Assembly (NCBI GenBank): GCA_964596355.1
Contig: CAZQTD010000005.1
Coordinates: 1-63,114, forward strand
Direction of reading: 5' to 3'
DNA from: an uncultured Gammaproteobacteria bacterium
Lineage (GTDB): Bacteria > Patescibacteriota > Microgenomatia > UBA10105 > UBA927
DNA length: 63,114 nt
Shown here piece by piece: positions 3,330 through 14,562 of this stretch. The number at the start of each line of letters is the position of its first letter. The first letter of the stretch is position 1. A model generated the notes under the pieces. The model searched no databases, had not been told where the DNA came from, and saw nothing but the letters and a program-made list of their open reading frames with translations. The translations under genes and the position numbers were made by a program.

Positions 3330-3383
3330 AATGCACGAGCGATTGGTTGATGCGTGCGTGGAGAACGTTTATACTGTAAAGTA

Positions 3384-5615
3384 ATGCCCACACGCTTATT
3401 TGTCATTGGGAGTTTTACTCTATTTGGTATGGGAATTATACGGATATTTTTTCCGTATTTTTCATCCCCAACATACGCAGCCGTATCTTCTTGTACCACG
3501 TCAGTGAGTCCGACAAGCATGACACAGTCTTCAACTGGCATATTGGCATTTCGTGTTGAAAATACATCTTCCGAAACAATTCTTTGGGTAAAAGTATCCC
3601 GTCCGGATGATAGTTTTACGGTTAACGGTGCTTCTGCAGGCGGGTGGAATGCATCCAATACGGAAGAAGCAGGAACATTTAGCGGAGGATCCTCTATAGC
3701 CCCGTCAGGATCGGCATATTTTTCACTGAACGTTACTGCGGGTGGCAGTGTAGGAGATCCGGGAAGTTGGACCGTAGAAGTATCGGATGACAGCGGTGGT
3801 AGCTCTCCAACGACATGCACGGGCGACACAAGTGTGTCTATCACGGAAGGCAGCGGCGGGGGAGACACAACGGCACCTACAATTTCTGACATCGTTGTTT
3901 CCGACATTTCCGATACGCAGGCGAAAATTACCTGGACCACGGATGAGTCCGGAACAACAGTCGTTGATTACGGCACAACTGATGACTACGGATCCACGGC
4001 AACCGGTGACTCGGGAACATCGCATAGCGTGACAATTTCAAGTCTCACGGCAAATACGACGTATCACTATAATGTGAAAAGCGCGGATAGCGCAGGAAAT
4101 ACCGGTGAATCCGGAGATAATACGTTTGTGACAGCCAAACAGGGGACGACGACGACCACGACGGTAACCGGAACGACGCGCACAATTACCGCTACCGGCA
4201 CGCCGACGCCGGTTCCTGATAGGACGCCGCCCAAGACCACGATTGTTACCACGCTCAATAAACCCTTCACCGAGGCGCCGACCATAGAAGGCAAGGCAAC
4301 CGATCCAAGCGGCGTGGCTAAACTGGAATACTCGATTGATGACGGCAGGAATTTTCTTCCGATTGACGAGGTCGAAGGATTAGGGAAGGCGTCAGCGACG
4401 TTTACGTTTACCCCTTTGGGACTTTTGGACGATAACTACATCGTAAAAATCCGCGCAACAGACAGCAAAGGCAACACAGGGACAAGCAAGGGTGTCACGA
4501 TGGTGGTTGACCGCCTGCCGCCGTTAGTGGGCGGCGTGGTCTTGACGCTCGGGCCGCAGGTTATCGAACCAACGAAAGACGGAGCGCTGATCTTGCTTCC
4601 ACATGTTTCATACAACCTGACACTTTCTGCTGTTGGAGGCCCTACAGACATTCGTCTCGTAGGTAACCTAGGTAACCTCGGTACCCTACGCAAAAACCTC
4701 GACAATGGCCTCTGGAGTACGACGATCCGGTTTGATACGTCCGGGATGTACACGCTCTGGACACACGCAATTGATGGAGCGGGAAATATAAAAGACCATG
4801 CGTTTCCGTCATTCACTGTTGTTGAGCCCGGACGGGTATTTGGGGGGTCTGTCGCGGTGACCAATGGAACGCTCGTTGTGTATGTGCTTCATGATGATAC
4901 CAAGCGGTTTATCCTGTGGGATGGAGAAGCCTATGGGCAAAACAATCCGCTCCCATTATCCCATGACGGGTCATATGCATTGTATTTGCCTGCCGGCACG
5001 TATTATCTTGAAGTACGCGCGCCGGGGTATACGCGTGCGATTTCCCAAATTTTTTGGTTAGATAAAGGCGCACCAATTGTTGAACCAATTTACCTGACGC
5101 GAAAGCGCGCACTTCGTTTGGGACCGTTTCTTATTCCTCTGCCTGATTTCCGGCAGACAACCATACGATTGACGCTCACGACTCCGTCTATGGACGCGCC
5201 AGCAAGCAGCGTCCGCGATGTGACTGGCGAAGAACTGCCGTATTTTCGGCTTCCTTCTGATGATACGATGATCGCAAGTACGTCGTTGCGCGGCAAACCA
5301 ACAATTATTACCTTCCTTAATTCTTGGTTGCCCCATACGCCGGAACAGCTGGCTGTCTTGCAGGAGCTTGCCCAAAAAAAGGAAATTCATGTGGTAAGCA
5401 TTTTTCCACAAGAAACCGCGGCGGCAGTTTCCATTTTTCGAAAACGGGGGGATTACGCAATCCCGATCATCGCGGATCCCGACGGCACGCTCATAGAAGC
5501 ACTTGGCCTGACATCCTTTCCTGCTCACGTGTTTGTCAGCCGTAAAGGGATTATCGAGAGAGTGGCGACGGGCTTGCTAACAAAGGAGGAGTTGTTGGAT
5601 AACGTGTTAAAATAG
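3384..5615 (+). CDS. Secreted/surface protein: Ig-like and FN3 (purple acid phosphatase N-terminal-like) domains, Thr-rich linker, carboxypeptidase-regulatory-like segment, C-terminal redoxin-fold domain lacking CxxC
   Basis: Signal/TM N-terminus; 'AKITWTTDE...VDYGTT...HSVTISSLTANTTYHYNVKSAD' FN3 motif; 'D.TPP' Ig repeats; C-terminal 'LRGKPTIITFLNSW...DPDG...SFPAHVFV' AhpC/TSA-like. Confidence 0.7.
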   Translation: MPTRLFVIGSFTLFGMGIIRIFFPYFSSPTYAAVSSCTTSVSPTSMTQSSTGILAFRVENTSSETILWVKVSRPDDSFTVNGASAGGWNASNTEEAGTFSGGSSIAPSGSAYFSLNVTAGGSVGDPGSWTVEVSDDSGGSSPTTCTGDTSVSITEGSGGGDTTAPTISDIVVSDISDTQAKITWTTDESGTTVVDYGTTDDYGSTATGDSGTSHSVTISSLTANTTYHYNVKSADSAGNTGESGDNTFVTAKQGTTTTTTVTGTTRTITATGTPTPVPDRTPPKTTIVTTLNKPFTEAPTIEGKATDPSGVAKLEYSIDDGRNFLPIDEVEGLGKASATFTFTPLGLLDDNYIVKIRATDSKGNTGTSKGVTMVVDRLPPLVGGVVLTLGPQVIEPTKDGALILLPHVSYNLTLSAVGGPTDIRLVGNLGNLGTLRKNLDNGLWSTTIRFDTSGMYTLWTHAIDGAGNIKDHAFPSFTVVEPGRVFGGSVAVTNGTLVVYVLHDDTKRFILWDGEAYGQNNPLPLSHDGSYALYLPAGTYYLEVRAPGYTRAISQIFWLDKGAPIVEPIYLTRKRALRLGPFLIPLPDFRQTTIRLTLTTPSMDAPASSVRDVTGEELPYFRLPSDDTMIASTSLRGKPTIITFLNSWLPHTPEQLAVLQELAQKKEIHVVSIFPQETAAAVSIFRKRGDYAIPIIADPDGTLIEALGLTSFPAHVFVSRKGIIERVATGLLTKEELLDNVLK

Positions 5616-5695
5616 CGTATAGAGAATAGGAATAGCGCATAGAGAATAGCGTATAGTTAGTATTACCTAAACGCTATTGACGAAACGCTATTCAA
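5616..5695. repeat. Heptamer-type degenerate repeats arranged as inverted blocks (AATAGCGT / ACGCTATT)
   Basis: AATAGCGT at ~5646 pairs with ACGCTATT at ~5671 and ~5685. Confidence 0.7.
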
Positions 5696-5702
5696 CCTGC
5701 CT

Positions 5703-7283
5703 ATGTGGCTACACTTTATACTTGAAAACATCCATTTTGCCATAAACTTGTTTGCGGCCCTCACGTTCTTTGCCGTGTTTTGGCTCTACATTGATGCGTG
5801 GGAGGAGCGCAAAAGCGCGCACATACTTGGGAAAATCGTCGGGTATCTCCTTCTTTCTCTTTCATTTCTCCTTTCCGGACTAGAAGTTGAGTCTACTATT
5901 GTGGCAGTGCCGATTTTTGGGGAAGCCATCCGTACGATGCTACTTTCGGGCGTGCGGATTCTGGCGTATCTTTTCCTTATTGCTGGCGTAGCAAGCGAAC
6001 CGCTCGAACCGCTTCCCACACGTCCCGCCAATACCGTCGCCGTCTTTCTTGGGATTACCGGATGATCCTTTATCCTTCACCCGATTGCCGCGTCGATCAT
6101 CGCGTTTTTATACCTTCGGCGGGCAACAGTCGGGCTTGAACATCATATCAAGCCGGTGGCGTTTGGATTTTTCCTTATTGCCCTGTCGGAGCTTGTTTCC
6201 ACTGCCGCGCTGTTTCGCGATACGGCGTGGGTATCGCTTTACCGATTGGTCAGTCCCTTTGGGATGTTTTGGATGGTGGAGCATGCGCTGTTGTGCGTGG
6301 GGATTATCATCATCAGCCGCTGGGTATTTGCGTATCTGTTTAAACAATTCCACACGCAGCTATTTATGATCATCACAACCATGATACTTGTCATTTTCCT
6401 TGTTACCACCGTATCATTTAGCGGACTTCTGGTAAAAAACGTTCAGGATGAAAGTTTGCGTCAGCTTGAAACCGATGTTTTGGTGCTTCGCTATTCGCTC
6501 GAAAGTAAAAAATCCCAGCTTGTTTCTGACGCGCAGATGATTTCACAAAATCAGGCAATCATCCAAGGCGTCACGCAACAGAATCGCATGGAATTGGCGA
6601 AGCTGGCAAGCGAGTATTTGTTGACAAAAAAACAAAGCACGCTCCTTGTGGTAAATGAATCCGGCCAACTTATCGCCCGCGGAGAAGACCGCGATCGTAT
6701 CGGAGAATCGCTCTCCGGCGATACGCTGGTTAAGCGTGCGCTTTTGGGAGAATCGGTTGCGTCTGTGGTGACGACGGAGGGGGTGGTGGCGCCGATGGTG
6801 AGCATCCGCGCGGCTGTTCCCATCCGGGGAGAAAACAATGCCGTCATCGGCGCCGTCATTGTTGGCGAGGCAGTGGACAGCGCGTATGTGGACGGGCTCA
6901 AGAAAGCCACCGGGCTTGACGCATCGATCTACGCGGATATGACCGTGAGCGCAACGACGTTCCTTGCGCCGGACGGCGCGTCCCGCATGGTCGGGATGAA
7001 GGAAAACTCTTCCCGCGTCAAAGACAGGGTACTGAAGGATACCATGCAGTACACCGGGTCTGTGCCGGTTTTGGGTACGCCGTACTTTGCGTCATTTTTG
7101 CCGCTTGCCGATGCGGACAACGTGCCAGTGGGGATGCTCTTTGTCGGCAGGCCGCAAGTACATGTCCTGGCTGCCGCCGGAAGATCCATTGAGCTGACGT
7201 TTCTGGTGACGTCACTACTCCTTGTTCTTTCGATAGTTCCGGCATTTATGATATCGACGTTTATCAGCAGCCAGTTGGAATAG
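5703..7283 (+). pseudogene. Multi-TM membrane protein with extracellular Cache-like domain, interrupted by in-frame TGA at 6063-6065
   Basis: ORFs 5703-6065 and 6156-7283 share a frame; reading through gives ...FLGITG*SFILHPIAASIIAFLYLRRATVGLEHHIKPVAFGFF... with no further stop. Confidence 0.75.
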
Positions 7284-7286
7284 CGC

Positions 7287-9616
7287 ATGAGTCTTCGGAC
7301 AAAAATTATTCTGTTCATCATCCTCTCTACTGTGGTTACCACGGTGGTGACATCCTTCATGCTTATTGTCATTATCCTTCGAGAATTTCAGGCGATTGAG
7401 CGCGAACAGGTGGTGCAGAATATCCAGCGCGTGCAGGAAGTAATCGCTGTGGATATAGAGCACCTAGATACCAAGTTAAGCGATTGGACGATGTGGGACG
7501 ATACGTATGAATTTATTCACAATCACAACTCGCGATACATCGAATCAAACCTTCAGGATCTGACGCTGGAGAATTTGAAAATTAATCTCATGGTGTTTCT
7601 GGACTCTGCCGGGCAGGTCGTATGGGAGCGCGCGTATGATGTGACGGCCAAACGGGCCGCCAGTATGCCGGAGGGGTTTCACGACAGTATCAAAACACCC
7701 ATGCGTTTTCCGGCCTATCTTCAGCCGACGATCATATACGCGGTATACTGGTATTTTCAAACACGGCATACCTTATCGCGGCTCGCCCCATCCTTCCTAC
7801 CGACGGCATCGGCGCGCCGCGCGGAACCATGATTATAGCGATGGAGTTTTCCGATGAGCTGTTGAAGCGGTATTCGGAAGTAACCAAGCTTGCCGTTTCT
7901 GCGTATCGCGCGGACGCACCCCGAGATGCCAACGAGCGGGACGCGCTTCATGCGCTTCAATCGGGCGAGCCGGTAGCGATGTGGTTTGCGTCACACGCCG
8001 CGGTTCGCGGGTACGCGCTTGTCCGCGATATTTTTGGGGAACCGGTACTGGTGGTTGGAGTAGATATGCCGCGCAGCGTCTACCAGCAGGGCATGCGTAC
8101 GATCCGATATCTGGGTATTGTGGGGGTTGCAAGCGGAGGAATGTTTATTATCCTCTTTATCATTATCCTTGAACGGTTGATGATTGCCCGGCTGATAGCC
8201 ATGCAGTCTGAAGTGAAAGCAATTGCTTCAAGCGGCGATATCTCCGCGCGATTGCCGAGTGATAGAGGGAATGATGAGCTTAGTCAGTTGACTGGCTCCA
8301 TAAATACCATGCTTGGGTCACTGGAAGAAGCACAGCACGCACTTACCAAAGAAAAAGCAACGCTGGATGTGTACTTAGACGTGGTCAATACGATGATTGT
8401 CGTTTTATCTCCTGATCAAACCATATTGCAGATTAATACAGTGGGACTGCATAAGCTTGGATATGAGGCAAACGATATTGTGGGTAAGTCCTGGAGAGAG
8501 GTTTGTGTGCCGGAAGGCGTGCGGGATCAGGTAAAGAGGGTATTTGATGCTCTCGTCAGCGGACGCCACCAGCTTGCAGAATACTATGAATATCCTATTT
8601 CAACGCGTGACGGACGCGAGCTTCTGGTGGCGTGGCACAATAGCGTGATTCGGGATGAACAGGGAAAGGTCGTTGCCACGGTTTCTTCCGGTGAAGATAT
8701 CACCGAGCGGAGAAAAGAAGATATTGCGCTTCGGGAAAGCGAAGAGCGATTCCGCATGATCGCCCAACAAACAGGGCAGGTCATGTATGATTACCATCTG
8801 GCAAGCGGCGCAATTGTCTGGGCAGGGGCAATTTCCGAAGTCATAGGGTATACGCCGGATGAATTTGCCTTCTTTGACATAAAAAAATGGGAAGAAAATA
8901 TCCATCCGCAGGACAGAGAAGAAGCATTGCGGCTCCTTGAAGAGGCTAGGAAACAAGTCACGAAATACCGCGCAATCTACCGTTTCCGCAGGAAAGACGG
9001 TACGTATTTTATCGCAGAAGATAACGGTGTATTTCTGCGCAATGACAAAGGTGAACCATACCGCATGTTAGGCGCGGTTGCCGACATTTCCAAACGGGTT
9101 GCGGCAGAATCCAAACTTCAGGAGAGTGAGCGCATCTACCGGTTTTTTATCGATAACTCGCACGAGCTCATTTTTATTTTGGATCCCCAAGGCATGATTC
9201 GATTTGTAAATCGCCACGTCATAGAAAGTTTGGGGTATAAAGAAGAAGAGCTTATTGGAAAGCCTTTTAGTGATTTCCTCATGCCGGAATCTGCCGCAAA
9301 AGTAGCAACATCGCTCGCGCTTAGATTTCAGAGCAAACCCCAGCCGGTCATGGAAGTTGGAATGAAGAGCAAAGCAGGTGATGTGTTGATTATTGAAATT
9401 GCAGAAGGGTCGGTGCTGGTGCATGAAAAGGGTGAACTTATCGGTGTTATGGTGAGCGGATATAACATCACGCAAAGAAAGAGGATGGAAGATGCCCTTC
9501 AGCGGAGAAATAAAGAGCTAAAGCACATAAACCAGCTTATGGTTGGAAGAGAACTAAAGATGATTCAGATAAAGCAGGAGCTTGAAGACCTCAAAAAGCG
9601 TCTTGCTTCACAGTGA
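7287..9616 (+). pseudogene. CHASE4-HAMP-3xPAS sensor with coiled-coil tail and no catalytic domain; frameshifted between ~7640 and ~7720
   Basis: CHASE4 'DWTMWDDTYEF' in frame 1; continuation 'DDHIRGILVFSNTAYLIAARPILPTDGIGAPRGTMII' is in the frame of ORF 7829-9616; HAMP 'DELSQLTGSINTML'; PAS/PAC 'DITERR','DISKR','NITQRK'. Confidence 0.75.
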
Positions 9617-9627
9617 TCCTGCGTGGG

Positions 9628-10416
9628 CTACGAATGTTCTGCTACGAAGGTATTGAATAGCTGGATCTGGAAAAAAAGGAAAAAACACCCCGCTGTCAGC
9701 CAAAACAGATCAGGAACACCTCCGTTTGCGTACGTTTCGTTTGTCGTTTGTATGGAAAAAAGCGAATCAGCAGTTATTTGAGACAAAAGCGCGATAATCA
9801 ATAAGAGCGATAATCCCTTGAGCTTTCCTCCGATATACCGCCAGAGCATGAATGTCAAGACGAGGAGAATGGCGTCTCCTAGAGGATGTAAGATATTAAA
9901 CAGTTTTGCTAAATCCGGCAGGCCGCTTGAAACGTCAGGTCTATAGATAACCCCAAACAAGAGGACGCACGATAGAGCAAGAATTCCCACCGATTCGGCG
10001 AGGTTTTGCCACCGGAGTCGCGATTGAACGATTGAAAGAAGCTGCCATACTCCGGCAATCATGCAGGGGATCAAAAGAAGGAAAAATACATCGGCAACAG
10101 ACGGATATGGCACTTCGACGTGCAAGATCATGTTGTAATAAATAACCCAGATTATCGAACCAACGCCCCATGAGCCAATACCGAGTCCAAACAACAGAAG
10201 AGCCTTCCCCACGGCGCTCGATGTTCCTGTTGAGGGTAGGGCATAGAGGCCGACGTAAAGCGATGCGAGGAATACTAGTTGATAAAACAGTTCAAATACG
10301 TTGACGTATATCGTTTCATGAAAGACGAATTGCAGTCCAAGCCACCACAGAAAGGCCGCGATGCTTACAGCAATCGCTGGTAACAACGGTATGCGGCGGA
10401 TGGCGCGCTGGTTCAT
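9628..10416 (-). CDS. 7-8 TM membrane protein (sensor-type membrane domain, no output domain)
   Basis: Hydrophobic helices; 'PYPSVADVFFLL', 'YPxGD'-like 'HPLGDAILL', 'DLFW' resemble membrane sensor modules of GGDEF/HK proteins. Confidence 0.6.
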   Translation of the reverse strand: MNQRAIRRIPLLPAIAVSIAAFLWWLGLQFVFHETIYVNVFELFYQLVFLASLYVGLYALPSTGTSSAVGKALLLFGLGIGSWGVGSIIWVIYYNMILHVEVPYPSVADVFFLLLIPCMIAGVWQLLSIVQSRLRWQNLAESVGILALSCVLLFGVIYRPDVSSGLPDLAKLFNILHPLGDAILLVLTFMLWRYIGGKLKGLSLLLIIALLSQITADSLFSIQTTNETYANGGVPDLFWLTAGCFFLFFQIQLFNTFVAEHS

Positions 10417-10495
10417 ATACGGACGCGTTCTTAGAATTGTGTTCTTTCTATTGTATACTCATACGTAGAGAGAGAATCAAGTAGGAACCGTTTGT

Positions 10496-12529
10496 ATGAC
10501 TGCCCGATCGTTACTGCCAGCTGTATTTGGTCGATTGTTTCGGCATGAAAAAATAGCAGAAGACGGCATCATCGCGTTTCTCCAAGAGCAGATTGTGAGA
10601 AAAGACGCAGTGCGCGAAGCATTGCGGCAGATTGCAAAAGCACAGCGATTGGAGCCAACCGAGCGAATTTTTGCATACATTCCGCTGTACGCTTCGCTGG
10701 AGCAGTTTATTTGCGCCAATAAACTGCCGGTGGTGAACCGCGAGTTTACGAAGGACGAGCTTCGCCGTGCTGTCTGTGCGGCTGTGCCGGTAACTACCAT
10801 GAGCGTCTATTTTCAGGTCCTGTTTCGGGACTCTGTGCAAAAAGCGCTCATCCTCTTTTGGATTATTTCACACGCGTTGCGAGAAACCTACAGCAAGCTT
10901 TTGGGGAGTGATCGCCTCGCAGACATGTTTCGACGGACAACCGATGGAACGCCGCTTGATGGCGTATTTGCCGGCATGACGCTTCACAGCGATGCGGTAT
11001 CCGCGCAGCAAGACGTCGAGGCAATTTTGCCTGTCCTTCAGAAGCTCATCACAATGATGTATGAGGAGATTCGCGGCGGGTTCGGCAATCAGCTCGCTGA
11101 TTCACTGATTGCTTCTTCTGTTGCCCGGATTCGGAATCTGTATGACTATGACACGCAACTTCTTTGTTTTGACATTGTTCCCGAAGCGTATCTTCAGAAA
11201 GAGCGCATATCCATGCTGTCGCGCAAAGACCTTGAGGAGAAAATTGCCTTGGCGACGCAGAAAGAGCGTGATCATGCCGAAAAGCAGGCTCGTCTGGCGA
11301 AAGAACTTCACGATCAGCTCGTTTTGATGGATTAGAAGAATAAACAACTCGTCGAAACACAGCAGGCTATGGTGAATCTTTTGGAAGACGCGCGCGCTCT
11401 GGAAGAAGCGCTGAAGAAAGAAAAAGAAAGTGTCGAGCGTAAAGTTATCGAACGGACGCGCCAGCTCCATGATCAGCAAGCGAGGCTTCTGGCTTCCATA
11501 AACGCGCTCGCGTGGGGGTATGTGATGACCGATACGACCGGAAGAGTGCTTTTGACCAACAACCGCGTTGATCGCATGTTTGGTCCGATTGAAGGCGCGT
11601 GGACGCTTGACGTGTTGCAAGAAAAGGTAGGGAAAAGCATAAGTGTTACCGATACCTTCCACCGGTGTTTAGAAAAGAAGGAGAGCATTGACAATTCCGA
11701 TGTTCCGATAGGGAATCGGTTTTTTCGGGTGATGTTCGTTCCGGTTTTCACTGAAGGGGGAAAGCGGGAAATTATTGGAGAGCTTGTATTGTTTGAAGAC
11801 ATAACCGAGTGGAAAATCCTGGAACGATCGCGGGAAGAATTTTTTTCTATTGCAAGCCATGAACTGCGCACCCCTCTTACGGCAATACGAGGAAATACAT
11901 CGATGATTTTGGAATTTTTTCAAGATGAGCTGAAAAACCAAGAACTTAAAGAGATGGTTGATGATATTCATGATTCGAGCATCCGGCTTATCAAAATAGT
12001 GAACGACTTTTTGGACATGAGCCGGCTTGAGCAGGGGAAAATTGAGTTTAAAAAGGAACCCCTTGATATTACTGCACTAATCCGCGATGTTCTCAAGGAA
12101 TATCAAGCAACAGGATCGCAACGCAAGCTCGCGTTGACCTTTGAAGAACCCAACGAGCCCATCCTTCCGGTGATTGCGGACAAAGATCGCCTCAAGCAGG
12201 TACTTATCAATCTCATCGGAAATGCCTTGAAGTTCACCGAGCAGGGCGGCGTGAGGGTTCGCACGTATATGCATAACGGGTTTGTGCGGATTATCGTTGA
12301 AGATACGGGTAAAGGAATTCCGTATGAAAATCAGGTGCTTCTGTTTCGCAAATTCCAGCAAGCAGGTGACAGCATCTACGCACGTGACACCACGCAAGGC
12401 ACCGGACTGGGCCTCTATATTTCTCGGCTTCTTGTGGAAGGCATGGGGGGGACGATTGGTTTAGAGTATTCACGACCAGGCAAAGGATCTGCGTTTGCCT
12501 TTTCGCTACCTCTTGCAAACAGACAGTAA
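10496..12529 (+). pseudogene. PAS-HisKA-HATPase histidine kinase with uncharacterised N-terminal domain, interrupted by in-frame TAG at 11333-11335
   Basis: ORFs 10496-11335 and 11369-12529 share a frame: ...QLVLMD*KNKQLVETQQAMVNLLED...; H-box SHELRTPL, N-box NLIGNALKFT, G1 DTGKGI, G2 GTGLGL. Confidence 0.85.
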
Positions 12530-12559
12530 TGATTCTATTATGAAGGAGAGGAGCTTGGT

Positions 12560-12958
12560 ATGGCTAAATTGATTTTGGTCATCGAAGACGATCCGTTGAT
12601 GGCGCGGATGTACCAGAAGATCTTTAAATTTGAAAAATACGATGTGGCGCTTGCCGGTAACGGCGAAGAGGGCTTGGAAAAGGCACGGAAATGTAATCCT
12701 AGTCTCATTCTCCTGGACATCATGATGCCTAAAATGAACGGGTTGCAGGTATTGGAGAAGCTCAAAGACGATCTTGATACAAAGAAAATTCCCGTCGTCA
12801 TGCTGACGAACCTCGCCGGCGAAAAAGATGCGGAAAAAGCGCTCATCAAAGGCGCGGTCAAATATATCGTCAAAAGCCAACACGAGCCCAAAGAAGTCGT
12901 CAAAATCGTCAAAGAAATCATCGCCGCTCACTCAAGAGATGATGTGCCGGAGAGCTAG
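12560..12958 (+). CDS. Single-domain response regulator (CheY-like receiver)
   Basis: IEDD, LILLDIMMPKMNG, MLTN, KYIVK receiver motifs. Confidence 0.92.
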   Translation: MAKLILVIEDDPLMARMYQKIFKFEKYDVALAGNGEEGLEKARKCNPSLILLDIMMPKMNGLQVLEKLKDDLDTKKIPVVMLTNLAGEKDAEKALIKGAVKYIVKSQHEPKEVVKIVKEIIAAHSRDDVPES

Positions 12959-12964
12959 GAGAAT

Positions 12965-13036
12965 TTCTAATTTCTAATTGACCTAAATAAGCACCAATGA
13001 CTAAATTGGGACATTGGGATTTTTTAGAAATTAGAA
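12965..13036. repeat. Heptamer repeat footprint with perfect 13-bp inverted repeat TTCTAATTTCTAA / TTAGAAATTAGAA
   Basis: 12965-12977 is the reverse complement of 13024-13036; inner CCAATG/CATTGG also pair. Confidence 0.8.
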
Positions 13037-13060
13037 CGTAGGTCAGTGAGGGTAATTGTT

Positions 13061-13738
13061 GTGAAGCCTGCCGCAAAGAAAAAATCAAAAGTCGCCAAGA
13101 AACCGGTAGAACAACCGGCGCCGGCTGTTGAAACGCCCCAGACAGAAACACATACACACGCGGAAGCCTCTGTTCATGTAGAACCTCCTCAATCTGAAGC
13201 TCCCCAAGAAAACGCGCCCAATTCCAAAGAAGAAGAGAATCTGGAGGCAGCGCTGGAGGAGGCGCCGGCGGAAGAAGCGCCAATTGCCAAAACGAACAAA
13301 CTGCTTTTCACTGTCGGTACGATCGTTGCCACGGCGCTGGTCACGTCGTCAATCGGAATATTTCTTGTCTATTTATCACATCCCACGCAGGTGACGCGTC
13401 AAGAGACAGCGCCGGTGGAAGAAGTCTCTCCGTCAGCAACCCCTGTTCCGGCGCTTGCGAAATCTGACATAACGCTTGAGGTTCTCAACGGCTCCGGCGT
13501 GAAAGGGAGCGCAGGCAAAGCGGCAAGCAAACTTTTGGATTTGGGATACACCGTGGTTGGGACGGGAAACGCAGACGCGCGCTACGATCGAAGCGAGGTA
13601 TTTGTCGCAGCTGCGTTGGGAGAACAGGGGAGAACCATGCTTCTGGGCGATCTCGCAAAAGAATTTTCCGTTAGCTCCGTCTCCGGCGTCCTCGAAGATT
13701 CAACGGTTTCGGCGCGTCTCATCATCGGGAAAGAGTAA
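13061..13738 (+). CDS. Single-pass membrane protein with acidic/Pro-rich N-terminus and LytR C-terminal domain
   Basis: 'LEVLNGSGVKGSAGKAASKL...GNAD...VSARLIIGKE' LytR_C motif; GTG start inferred. Confidence 0.8.
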   Translation: MKPAAKKKSKVAKKPVEQPAPAVETPQTETHTHAEASVHVEPPQSEAPQENAPNSKEEENLEAALEEAPAEEAPIAKTNKLLFTVGTIVATALVTSSIGIFLVYLSHPTQVTRQETAPVEEVSPSATPVPALAKSDITLEVLNGSGVKGSAGKAASKLLDLGYTVVGTGNADARYDRSEVFVAAALGEQGRTMLLGDLAKEFSVSSVSGVLEDSTVSARLIIGKE

Positions 13739-13812
13739 TTTGGCAGGACAGCGGCAGACGGCGAGAAAGTCCCCATAGCGGACAGCTTGTAACTTCAAAA
13801 AAACTCGGTATA

Positions 13813-14562
13813 ATGGGTGATATGCTGGAAAACCCTCGGACAGAGAAACTTTCCCTTTTTTTCAGAAGATATAGCATTCCATTGGGAATCCTCGCGGTTT
13901 TGGTTGCCGCAGTTCCGTCGGTGTACTTTTTTACCAAATATCAGGCCGCCCAAAAGAGATTGACAAACCCCACGCAGTATGCGCAGGAGGAGGTCAAAGC
14001 GATGGTTGCGGAAGTTGGCAAACTCATGCAGCTTCCCGGGGATGAAGTCCCCACGCTTGCGACGGTCAACGATAAAGAGAAACTTCAAAATCAGCCATTT
14101 TTTACGTTCGCGGAAAACGGCGACAAAGTCCTTATCTACACGACGGCGAAAAAGGCGATTTTGTACCGGCCAAGCACGCATAAAATCATCGACGTTGCGC
14201 CGATAACCATCGGCGGCAGCGCAACGGAGTCGGCAAGCGTCGCCGGAGCGGCTACGTCTGTGAGCCCCACGCCTGCATCTTACACGTTCGTCCTCCTCAA
14301 CGGGAGCGGCGTCGTGGGTATTACCAAACGCTATGAAGCGGTGCTGAAGGAAAAAGTACCCAATGCCGAAGTCATTGATCGCGATAACGCCAAAAAGACA
14401 AATTACGACAAAACGATAGTGATTGACAGCACGGGCAAGCGAGCAAGTGAAGCAAAAGCGATTGCGGAAGCGCTCGGCATTACCGTCTCCAGCCTTCCTG
14501 CCGGCGAAGCCACAGCAAGCGGCGACTTCGTCATCATCATCGGAGATGATAAAGCCAAATAG
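13813..14562 (+). CDS. Single-pass membrane protein with LytR C-terminal domain
   Basis: 'LLNGSGVVGITKRY...DFVIIIGDD' LytR_C; 'LPGDEVPTLATV' segment. Confidence 0.8.
   Translation: MGDMLENPRTEKLSLFFRRYSIPLGILAVLVAAVPSVYFFTKYQAAQKRLTNPTQYAQEEVKAMVAEVGKLMQLPGDEVPTLATVNDKEKLQNQPFFTFAENGDKVLIYTTAKKAILYRPSTHKIIDVAPITIGGSATESASVAGAATSVSPTPASYTFVLLNGSGVVGITKRYEAVLKEKVPNAEVIDRDNAKKTNYDKTIVIDSTGKRASEAKAIAEALGITVSSLPAGEATASGDFVIIIGDDKAK

Follow-up and report, generated by a model that had tools for sequence, protein, structure and literature searches.

The stretch of DNA analysed here (63,114 nucleotides, in the following called the window) corresponds to contig C5, in its full length, from a genome of 1.10 Mb and 27 contigs (G000), which is 100% complete by marker genes. 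Between positions 5703 and 12958 it holds a signalling locus that consists of membrane sensors without an output domain, a soluble histidine kinase and a lone receiver. Comparison with other genomes indicates, with a probability of roughly 0.6, that the locus represents a widespread and apparently unnamed kind of two-component operon, in which sensors ending in a conserved helix (the tail) dock onto a separate kinase that carries a helix motif of its own (the head), and in which the receivers come last. The first layer of such an operon would be formed by one or more input-only sensors, each ending in the tail, of which the one in the window has the order TM-CHASE4-TM-HAMP-3xPAS (TM, transmembrane segment). 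The second layer would be a histidine kinase with the head, which is most often placed one PAS domain before HisKA, and the third would comprise one to three lone receivers. The tail of a sensor dimer may pack against the head helix or the stalk of the kinase, and the conformational state of the detached sensor would set the kinase activity in trans via the PAS-DHp stalk. Several different sensors could converge on one kinase, which, by analogy with known HisKA/REC systems, would phosphorylate the lone receiver encoded by gene E. In G000, gene B carries the only tail and gene D the only credible head. Comparative evidence strongly supports a putative coupling in trans between the tail sensor and the kinase, and the output-less tail sensors probably plug into a shared kinase.

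An earlier note on this DNA had described the locus as five parts and had suggested that the output-less sensors act on the kinase in trans. All five parts were found: a Cache protein that terminates 9 residues past its last hydrophobic segment (gene A), a CHASE4-HAMP-3xPAS protein in which Pfam detects neither a kinase nor a cyclase domain (gene B), a divergent multi-TM protein of 262 residues with no known output and no Pfam or NCBIfam match (gene C), a kinase behind a soluble domain of unknown family (gene D) and a regulator without an effector domain, namely a lone receiver of 132 residues (gene E). The description has to be amended in that genes A, B and D can only be read through three breaks, and the kinase and its N-terminal domain are actually two open reading frames (ORFs), split by a TAG at 11333. 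As to the coupling in trans, the comparison of sequences argues for it in the case of the tail sensor B, whereas for A and C the evidence consists of synteny. The proposed coupling through a coiled coil withstands both refuting conditions of the note, with the limitation that the relevant kinase coil is a specific head motif, which in this genome starts directly behind the TAG.

The tail of the sensor proteins

The tail sensor is encoded by gene B (7287..9616, plus strand), which specifies a TM segment, a CHASE4 domain, a second TM segment, a HAMP domain, three PAS domains and the tail. One hydrophobic segment lies on either side of the CHASE4 domain, as estimated, like all TM segments reported here, with a simple hydropathy scan. 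Pfam recognises CHASE4, HAMP and PAS in the protein and nothing else before it ends with ...MVGRELKMIQIKQELEDLKKRLASQ. The final 37 residues, RRNKELKHINQLMVGRELKMIQIKQELEDLKKRLASQ, are encoded at 9503..9613 (+) and were identified with the alignments A2 and A3, a profile search and a six-frame motif scan. They belong to a conserved C-terminal helix of about 35 residues with the consensus ELExxNxLMVGRELKMxELKKEIxxLK. The core pattern N..M.GRE..M.ELK is present within 30 residues of the C-terminus of B, and the tail profile A2 matches residues 559-595 of the 595-residue ORF in which the gene ends (E 8.5e-11). According to the six-frame motif scan, this is the only tail in G000.

Among the genomes of family f1, 11 proteins in 7 genomes end in the tail helix, and they show six architectures: CHASE4-HAMP-tail (393 and 421 residues), CHASE4-HAMP-PAS-tail (555), HAMP-tail (434), multi-PAS-tail (421, 538, 539, 567 and 667) and two others (182 and 318). 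In 12 aligned tails the residues N, M, R, E, M and K are invariant. In 107 tails from many phyla R and E remain invariant and N, M, G, M, E, L and K are each found in at least 90% of the sequences. The residues N, M, E, M and K follow each other at distances of +3, +4, +3 and +4 and would therefore lie on the same side of a helix. Even at E<=10 the tail is matched by no Pfam model, the NCBIfam matches of B are confined to PAS and sensor-kinase-type models with none specific to the tail, and the head is covered by no Pfam or NCBIfam model either. A search of the ESM Atlas with the tail gave a best value of 0.86 for a STAS cluster, which lies below the level treated as meaningful, and a word-based search with the tail region retrieved just 2 non-self proteins. 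In the literature searched, with most subscription journals lying outside its scope, neither the tail nor the head nor this type of operon was found described.

The profile A2, which was built from 12 family tails, was scored against 1.84 billion cluster representatives. At E<=1e-3, 9355 of these representatives were matched, and 63 remained at E<=1e-10. Among the best 148 new proteins of these 9355, which were followed up, the motif is present in 141, and in 136 of the 141 the protein ends no more than 40 residues past it. The exceptions to the terminal position carry either two tails with PAS or CBS domains between them or a conserved extension of about 75 residues. Such an extension (DGIKLEESVV...SxxHExxL-like) follows the tail in P0149, P0207 and P0269, and no family could be assigned to it. 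The 25 commonest of the 49 Pfam families on the 148 representatives, to which this census is confined, are all input domains: PAS_9 (65), HAMP (27), dCache_1 (8), CHASE4 (4) and CHASE, CBS, REC and GAF (2 each) were found among them. A similar picture was obtained for 97 tail ORFs, where the 25 commonest of the 38 families comprise input domains only, with PAS_9 (50), HAMP (15), CHASE4 (7), dCache_1 (6), GAF (4), MEDS (3) and REC (2). Since the tail is conserved, terminal and widespread, the RELKM ending of B is not a truncation scar.

The S-helix is a coiled coil with a central ERT motif that lies between sensor and output. Segments of the ERT type precede some tails and are also found in the window kinase (VIERTRQL); the tail itself is terminal and lacks ERT. 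Moreover, some proteins consist of a receiver, with or without PAS, that ends in the tail (L058, 229 residues; L069, 202 residues; P0121), which suggests that a phosphorylation state can also be fed to a kinase through the tail.

Kinases downstream of tail proteins

The kinase of the window is the product of gene D and was recovered as an ORF of 386 residues (D2, 11369..12529, plus strand) containing the head, a PAS-like domain, HisKA (3.8e-20) and HATPase_c (1.4e-25, both Pfam). It has no hydrophobic segment, and the H-box SHELRTPL as well as the ATP-binding N and G boxes are present in the translation. D2 resembles PnpS, PhoR and WalK, with 5.2e-66 for the PnpS/PhoR-like model and below the NCBIfam cut-offs. 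The lone receiver gene E (12560..12958, plus strand; Response_reg 9.1e-26 in Pfam) starts 31 nt past the kinase stop, and by sequence the pair has the features of a HisKA-type two-component system. Orthologues of E with 73-77% identity close the operon in L029, L031, L034, L036 and L038.

The head is encoded at 11336..11449 (+; KNKQLVETQQAMVNLLEDARALEEALKKEKESVERKVI) and was identified with alignment A5, a motif scan and a profile match (G000:C5:11339-11449). Its consensus is LExxKxAxxN[VLI]LED and its pattern A..N[LIVM][LIVMFA][EDSGK]D. A six-frame scan of G000 found the only credible head in D, and the two other pattern matches lack a coiled-coil context. The head usually starts about 220 residues before the end of HisKA, which places it one PAS domain upstream. 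In L119, a natural kinase of 404 residues carries the head at residue 25 and follows a tail protein of 196 residues. In the X-kinases of relatives (L037, L034, L041), the head and the S-helix are separated by an additional PAS domain, which is missing from the window kinase (11369-11520) as well as from L038 and L100; the window kinase has therefore either suffered a PAS-sized deletion or come from a different kinase-core lineage.

Upstream of the head lies the segment X (10496..11335, plus strand), a soluble domain of 279 residues that is predicted to be all-alpha and forms the N-terminal part of the kinase in relatives. Pfam has no match for these first 279 residues of D. X occurs in 3 of 36 other genomes of the family and is always fused to a coil-PAS-PAS-HisKA-HATPase kinase, in ORFs of 838, 860 and 1075 residues in G006, G030 and G029, respectively. 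An AF2 model of X has 14 helices (pLDDT 77, pTM 0.68). No relatives of X were found among longer proteins, a Foldseek comparison of the model with the PDB gave no match at E<=1e-3, and the VIA wide search gave no convincing fold relative, its best Z of 7.7 over 79 residues being in the common range for helical models.

The gene neighbourhood of the tail was studied across genomes. A scan of one genome per species gave at least 600 matches to the pattern and confirmed 504 of them, and the analysis was carried out with the best 80 of the at least 504 confirmed loci. Judged by record titles, these 80 loci derive mostly from Patescibacteria of many classes, and the other phyla and groups represented are Omnitrophota, Bacteroidota, Methylococcaceae, Aminicenantes, Verrucomicrobia, Delongbacteria and a deltaproteobacterium. 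One record entitled Gammaproteobacteria (L088, CAYGFH010000004.1) has, however, the gene order of G001:C4 of the window's family, so that several taxonomies in record titles ('uncultured Gammaproteobacteria', 'Saccharibacteria') look unreliable. Kinase cores, receivers, heads and tails in the called ORFs were marked with hidden Markov models (HMMs) built from the family loci. The 79 loci with marked tails contain 104 tail ORFs; the tail is C-terminal in 99 of them, and a kinase core is present in none of the 104.

Of the 99 tail ORFs, 37 are immediately followed by a kinase on the same strand, 8 by a further tail ORF and 30 by a same-strand gene that was left unclassified; for the others, the next element is a gene on the opposite strand (18), the end of the contig (4) or a receiver on the same strand (2). 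As the kinase HMM was derived from 14 related HisKA kinases, 37/99 is a lower bound. Just 3 of the 99 are immediately preceded by a kinase on their strand. A kinase lies at most three genes downstream in 46 of the 79 loci. The gaps between tail and kinase genes mostly range from -4 to +60 nt, nine being exactly -4, and the kinase is usually followed by 1-3 lone receivers. Up to six tail ORFs were counted in one locus (L058). In family f1, the last tail ORF is directly followed by a head-bearing kinase in 7 of the 7 genomes with tail proteins. In the window, the head-bearing kinase lies on the same strand 1.7 kb downstream of the tail, with gene C and the X ORF between them.

The head tracks the tail in these loci. 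The head pattern is present in 32 of the 37 kinases that stand right after a tail ORF and in 8 of the 29 other kinases of the same loci; 6 of these 8, which lie a few genes from a tail ORF, were also marked by a narrow head HMM. This first, narrow HMM marked a head on 17 of the 37 adjacent and 6 of the 29 other kinases, and it missed heads that are visible by eye. Shuffled kinases carry the pattern at a mean of 0.18 per 37. It was found in 5 of 1003 non-kinase ORFs, among them 2 situated directly before a short kinase-core ORF, one that is cut by the end of its locus and one that comes directly after a tail ORF. Because the pattern had been written after the data were seen, a separate test with the profiles A2 (tail) and A5 (head) was performed over 301 genomes, which were drawn evenly from the class irrespective of either motif. 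The tail was found in 23 genomes and the head in 22: 19 genomes have both, 4 the tail only, 3 the head only and 275 neither. In 18 of the 19 genomes with both motifs, the head lies 0.1-2.3 kb downstream of the tail on the same contig and strand, and the matches in the tail-only genomes G053 and G357 and in the head-only genome G110 are within about 700 nt of a contig end. The 19 genomes represent 13 families and include kin that are not independent as well as the unpublished genome G152, without which the count is 18.

These observations also bear on two other ideas about what the tail does. It could be a mere homodimerising zipper or stabilising end of proteins with other targets, next to a head-kinase because an ancestral operon has spread. 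The heptad-like spacing of the invariant residues N, M, E, M and K (+3, +4, +3, +4) would suit a zipper, some proteins carry two tails in one chain, and profile comparison has demonstrated neither homology nor complementarity. A plain zipper would, however, not need nine positions that are at least 90% conserved in 107 sequences from many phyla. Moreover, the input domains shuffle freely while the tail and the downstream head-kinase stay, and the 37-to-3 directional asymmetry together with the frequent 4-nt overlaps suggests co-translated partners, which makes this idea unlikely. According to the second idea, tail proteins would influence the kinase pathway as scaffolds or anti-kinases that bind elsewhere, to the lone receiver or to the DHp/CA core. 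Other systems have proteins of a similar sort, namely small inhibitors of kinases and regulators with a single domain (Sda, KipI, FixT). Docking away from the head would go with the same synteny, the receiver-tail proteins mentioned above would fit a phosphorelay feedback, and 5 of the 37 adjacent kinases have no head. We nevertheless consider it improbable, since adjacent kinases carry the head so much more often than others (32/37 vs 8/29), 19 of the 26 genomes with either motif have both, and the kinase cores and receivers of the genome's other systems come without a tail. G000 contains 4 HisKA and 5 receiver matches in total, and those outside the locus belong to such tail-less systems.

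Several points weigh against docking of the tail on the head-bearing kinase. The proposed contact derives from sequence comparison. A5 was built from tail-adjacent kinases and the regular expression was written post hoc, so that the co-occurrence may partly reflect descent within an operon family. The kinase HMM comes from 14 related kinases, 30 of the 99 downstream neighbours are unclassified same-strand genes and 18 lie on the opposite strand. The head motif is absent from 5 of the 37 tail-adjacent kinases. In the window, the divergent gene C separates B from D, unlike the arrangement in 7 relatives, and because A, B and D are each broken, the system could be non-functional in this organism. 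In profile-profile comparison, the tail showed no homology to any kinase part (hhalign probability of 0.3% for A3 against A4). The notion that the tail is a degenerate H-box/DHp helix or a homologue of the head is thus unsupported and was discarded, and the idea of a detached half of one signalling helix is without support from sequence. A complex prediction with two head-PAS-DHp segments (A4) and two tails (A3) gave no verdict (score 0.00) and speaks neither for nor against binding.

If the contact between tail and kinase is real, it would define a large unannotated signalling class, in which thousands of output-less proteins labelled 'PAS domain S-box' or 'hypothetical' gain the neighbouring kinase as their partner. 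It would also explain how many inputs are integrated with about 4 kinases per genome, and synthetic biology would gain a short tag that can be transferred to new sensors in order to connect them to a kinase. A bolder version, which we put forward tentatively and would not be surprised to see fail, is a portable two-helix docking code, by which a tail of about 35 residues would turn any input domain into a sensor that can be plugged into a kinase with the head. Such a code would allow genomes with very few kinases to read many signals through one phosphorelay. It would be in use across Patescibacteria and several other phyla (at least 9,000 protein clusters) without having a Pfam or NCBIfam name or model, and the window would illustrate that the architecture tolerates, or arises by, gene fission. 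For annotation, a real contact would mean that output-less sensors ending in the tail motif should not be labelled truncated or partial.

Relation to known signalling systems

The logic of the locus resembles that of auxiliary-sensor ('three-component') systems. Examples are RcsF/IgaA with RcsC and HbpS-SenS-SenR (PMC12471899). As in those systems, a separate polypeptide would sense the signal and set the activity of a histidine kinase that is encoded nearby. The known systems are, however, one-off pairings, each with its own contact surface, whereas here one conserved C-terminal helix is combined with at least a dozen input domains and tracks a kinase helix, and several sensors can precede one kinase. 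LuxP-LuxQ and the pairs of H-NOX proteins and kinases are further auxiliary-sensor systems.

In MCP-CheW-CheA arrays, output-less sensors of many specificities are coupled by a shared coiled-coil element to one separate kinase. Unlike in these arrays, B has no MCPsignal domain, the kinase is of the dimeric HisKA type and not CheA, no CheW-like adaptor was seen in the locus, and the tail measures about 35 residues and is not a long hairpin. Pfam detects MCPsignal at E<=0.01 in none of A, B and C. The stressosome (RsbR paralogues, RsbS, RsbT) likewise combines variable N-terminal sensors with a conserved C-terminal module that holds a separate kinase. There, the conserved module is a STAS domain and the kinase a serine kinase, whereas Pfam finds no STAS domain in B. 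Because B has neither an MCPsignal nor a STAS domain, the locus is not a member of the MCP or stressosome families. In the case of PhoR with PhoU/PstSCAB, the signal comes from other proteins and enters at the PAS region that adjoins DHp on its N-terminal side, and PhoR resembles the window kinase in having no sensor domain of its own. The locus differs by containing no Pst or PhoU genes, and to our knowledge the tail and head motifs are not features of PhoR. Finally, short PAS/LOV proteins consist of PAS and a C-terminal helix without an effector domain. We know of no conserved tail motif and no fixed kinase neighbour for them, whereas the tail motif described here is near-invariant and its neighbour is a kinase.

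Three breaks in the locus

Genes A, B and D are each interrupted once. Gene A (5703..7283, plus strand) is one frame broken by a TGA at 6063-6065, which leaves ORFs of 120 residues (5703..6065) and 375 residues (6156..7283) by the ORF list, Pfam and hydropathy. The loop YLRRATVGLExHxKP, which is cytoplasmic and the most conserved one in the family, is encoded by the 30 codons that separate the TGA from the next possible start and is thus cut off by the stop. At this site, 8 orthologues of 526-538 residues read on without a stop in the alignment, and intact orthologues overall measure 517-538 residues. Gene B contains a -1 frameshift at about 7722..7728 inside CHASE4, where the reading passes from ...PAYLQP in the frame of 7287 to DDHIRGILVF... 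in the frame of 7829. The two ORFs, 7287..7832 (181 residues) and 7829..9616 (595 residues), share an ATGA overlap (7829-7832), and 7 orthologues are continuous across the region. The first ORF matches positions 2-68 of the CHASE4 profile, and positions 76-138 are matched in the other frame (Pfam and profile search), so the window lacks a complete CHASE4 domain between two TM segments. Gene D is split by the in-frame TAG (11333-11335, plus strand) between X and the kinase; both parts lie in the same frame, and reading through the TAG gives one unbroken coiled coil. The kinase ORF starts at 11369 with the conserved M inside the head, an ATG 11 codons past the TAG. As X is always fused in the relatives, the TAG has split a normally single gene.

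A variant genetic code was rejected as the cause: two different stop codons are involved (TGA and TAG), the remaining break is due to a frameshift, and many long ORFs of this genome are terminated by either codon (TGA 203 and TAG 134 of 598 ORFs of at least 250 residues). An assembly error was rejected as well. Logan contigs of a second sample (run X2) cover 6017..7782 (record 5) and 10239..12104 (record 10) with 0 differences from the window. They are identical at all three sites, the TGA and the frameshift lying in record 5 and the TAG in record 10, and record 21 of run X4 is identical across the frameshift. Thus, independent contigs of a second sample show that the breaks are not assembly slips. 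The depth of the Logan contigs is 6-8 and all four runs come from one study; the breaks are therefore real in this population, a statement that does not extend to fixation in the species. They cluster in the locus (5703-12529), because each of the four further overlapping ORF pairs found in the window consists of distinct genes that belong to different families. Genome-wide, 242 same-frame ORF pairs were counted, most of which are chance antisense ORFs, and no pseudogene rate can be derived from them. The three breaks, i.e. the TGA in A, the frameshift in B and the TAG in D, are real and recent, which means that three recent mutations have struck a whole sensory pathway of this genome.

What remains after each break is a module with a nearby start: TM-HAMP-3xPAS-tail (595 residues), X (279 residues) and head-PAS-kinase (386 residues). 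Either the cytoplasmic core still works after loss of the outer sensor parts, or the system begins to decay. Since the kinase ORF of 386 residues matches the natural minimal kinase of L119, the core pair could still work. The possibility that A, B and D are fresh pseudogenes and that 5703-12529 no longer signals, whatever the mechanism in relatives, is a serious one, although we lean against it. Three independent disruptions within 7 kb that are reproduced in a second sample, while the orthologues are intact, are what decay would produce; they are concentrated in this one locus, they strike the sole tail/head system of the genome, and they remove the most conserved cytoplasmic loop of A and disturb the CHASE4 fold of B. 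On the other hand, the sequence flanking each break is still conserved, the receiver and the catalytic boxes of the kinase are intact, a start codon lies at or near each break (the ATGA at 7829 and the ATG after the TAG), and the surviving kinase ORF resembles the 404-residue form just mentioned.

The earlier note had also named the finding that would undo its proposal, namely that the genes do not co-occur in relatives or that the homologues are normally fused and the output-less proteins are truncations. Co-occurrence was confirmed by the kinase downstream in 9 of 9 loci with an A orthologue and by the head-kinase after the tail in 7 of 7 genomes. Fusion does exist: P0100 is a fused CHASE4-PAS-HisKA-HATPase protein of 942 residues, relatives have fused CHASE4-HAMP-PAS-head-PAS-kinases of 885-1011 residues, and the X/kinase split of the window is itself a broken fusion, so that the expectation holds for D. 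For A and B it does not, as their ends are conserved. That the output-less proteins are mis-assembled or simply truncated kinases is refuted for A and B and hardly credible overall, because the second-sample contigs are identical, the tail is conserved, C-terminal and widespread, and the Cache orthologues share one end point.

Cache protein, multi-TM protein and flanking genes

The protein encoded by gene A has about 7 hydrophobic segments before the Cache domain and one after it. The ORF 6156..7283 matches dCache_3 (6.2e-18) and sCache_3_3 (7.5e-21) in Pfam, and no cytoplasmic transmitter (HAMP/PAS-HisKA-HATPase) accompanies the dCache_3 domain as it would in a dCache sensor kinase. All nine A orthologues and two A-like paralogues end at the same place without a cytoplasmic domain. 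In family f1, the 9 loci with an A orthologue all have the downstream kinase on the same strand.

On the plus strand, the order from 3354 to 12958 is U753, gene A, gene B, gene D and gene E, and the minus-strand gene C lies between B and D. U753 (3354..5615, plus strand) encodes an exported protein of 753 residues with fn3, Big_13 and a C-terminal thioredoxin-like domain (AhpC/TSA, Redoxin), for which Pfam and NCBIfam ResA/DsbE-like matches were obtained. The gene A orthologues in nine f1 loci are all preceded by a U753 orthologue, for instance in L029, L030, L031, L034, L036, L037, L038 and L039. In L029 and L031 (relatives G001 and G069), a second pair of U753-like and A-like genes is located between the kinase and the receiver, so that the two genes form a module that can be duplicated within the operon.

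Gene C (9628..10416, minus strand; divergent from D) encodes about 6-7 hydrophobic segments. In G006, its homologue is divergent from the X-kinase. A paralogue of C is present elsewhere in G000 (C1:57121-60244, minus strand), where a multi-TM protein of 288 residues, an ORF of 96 residues, a soluble HisKA-type kinase of 477 residues and a lone receiver of 133 residues are encoded. All these genes are on one strand with the C paralogue upstream of the kinase, and neither tail nor head is present; in its logic, this second system is like that of the window. Gene C has no similarity to the N-terminal TM domain of the fused G029 kinase, and thus no evidence from fusion links C to the kinase. The repeated gene neighbourhoods suggest that A and C may also feed soluble kinases; as both are without a tail, any coupling to the kinase would be through the membrane or indirect.

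Scans for promoters and terminators in 5500-13200 gave results at chance level (9 vs 8.7 and 12 vs 8.4, respectively). In the intergenic region between U753 and gene A (5611-5693), three direct copies of a AATAGCGYATAGAGAATAG-like unit of 19 nt and matching inverted copies were observed. The 12-base core of this repeat has one other occurrence in the genome, and the array may be a candidate site for binding of a regulator. After the receiver gene, two consecutive membrane-anchored proteins of 230 and 249 residues with C-terminal LytR_C domains are encoded at 13046-14562.

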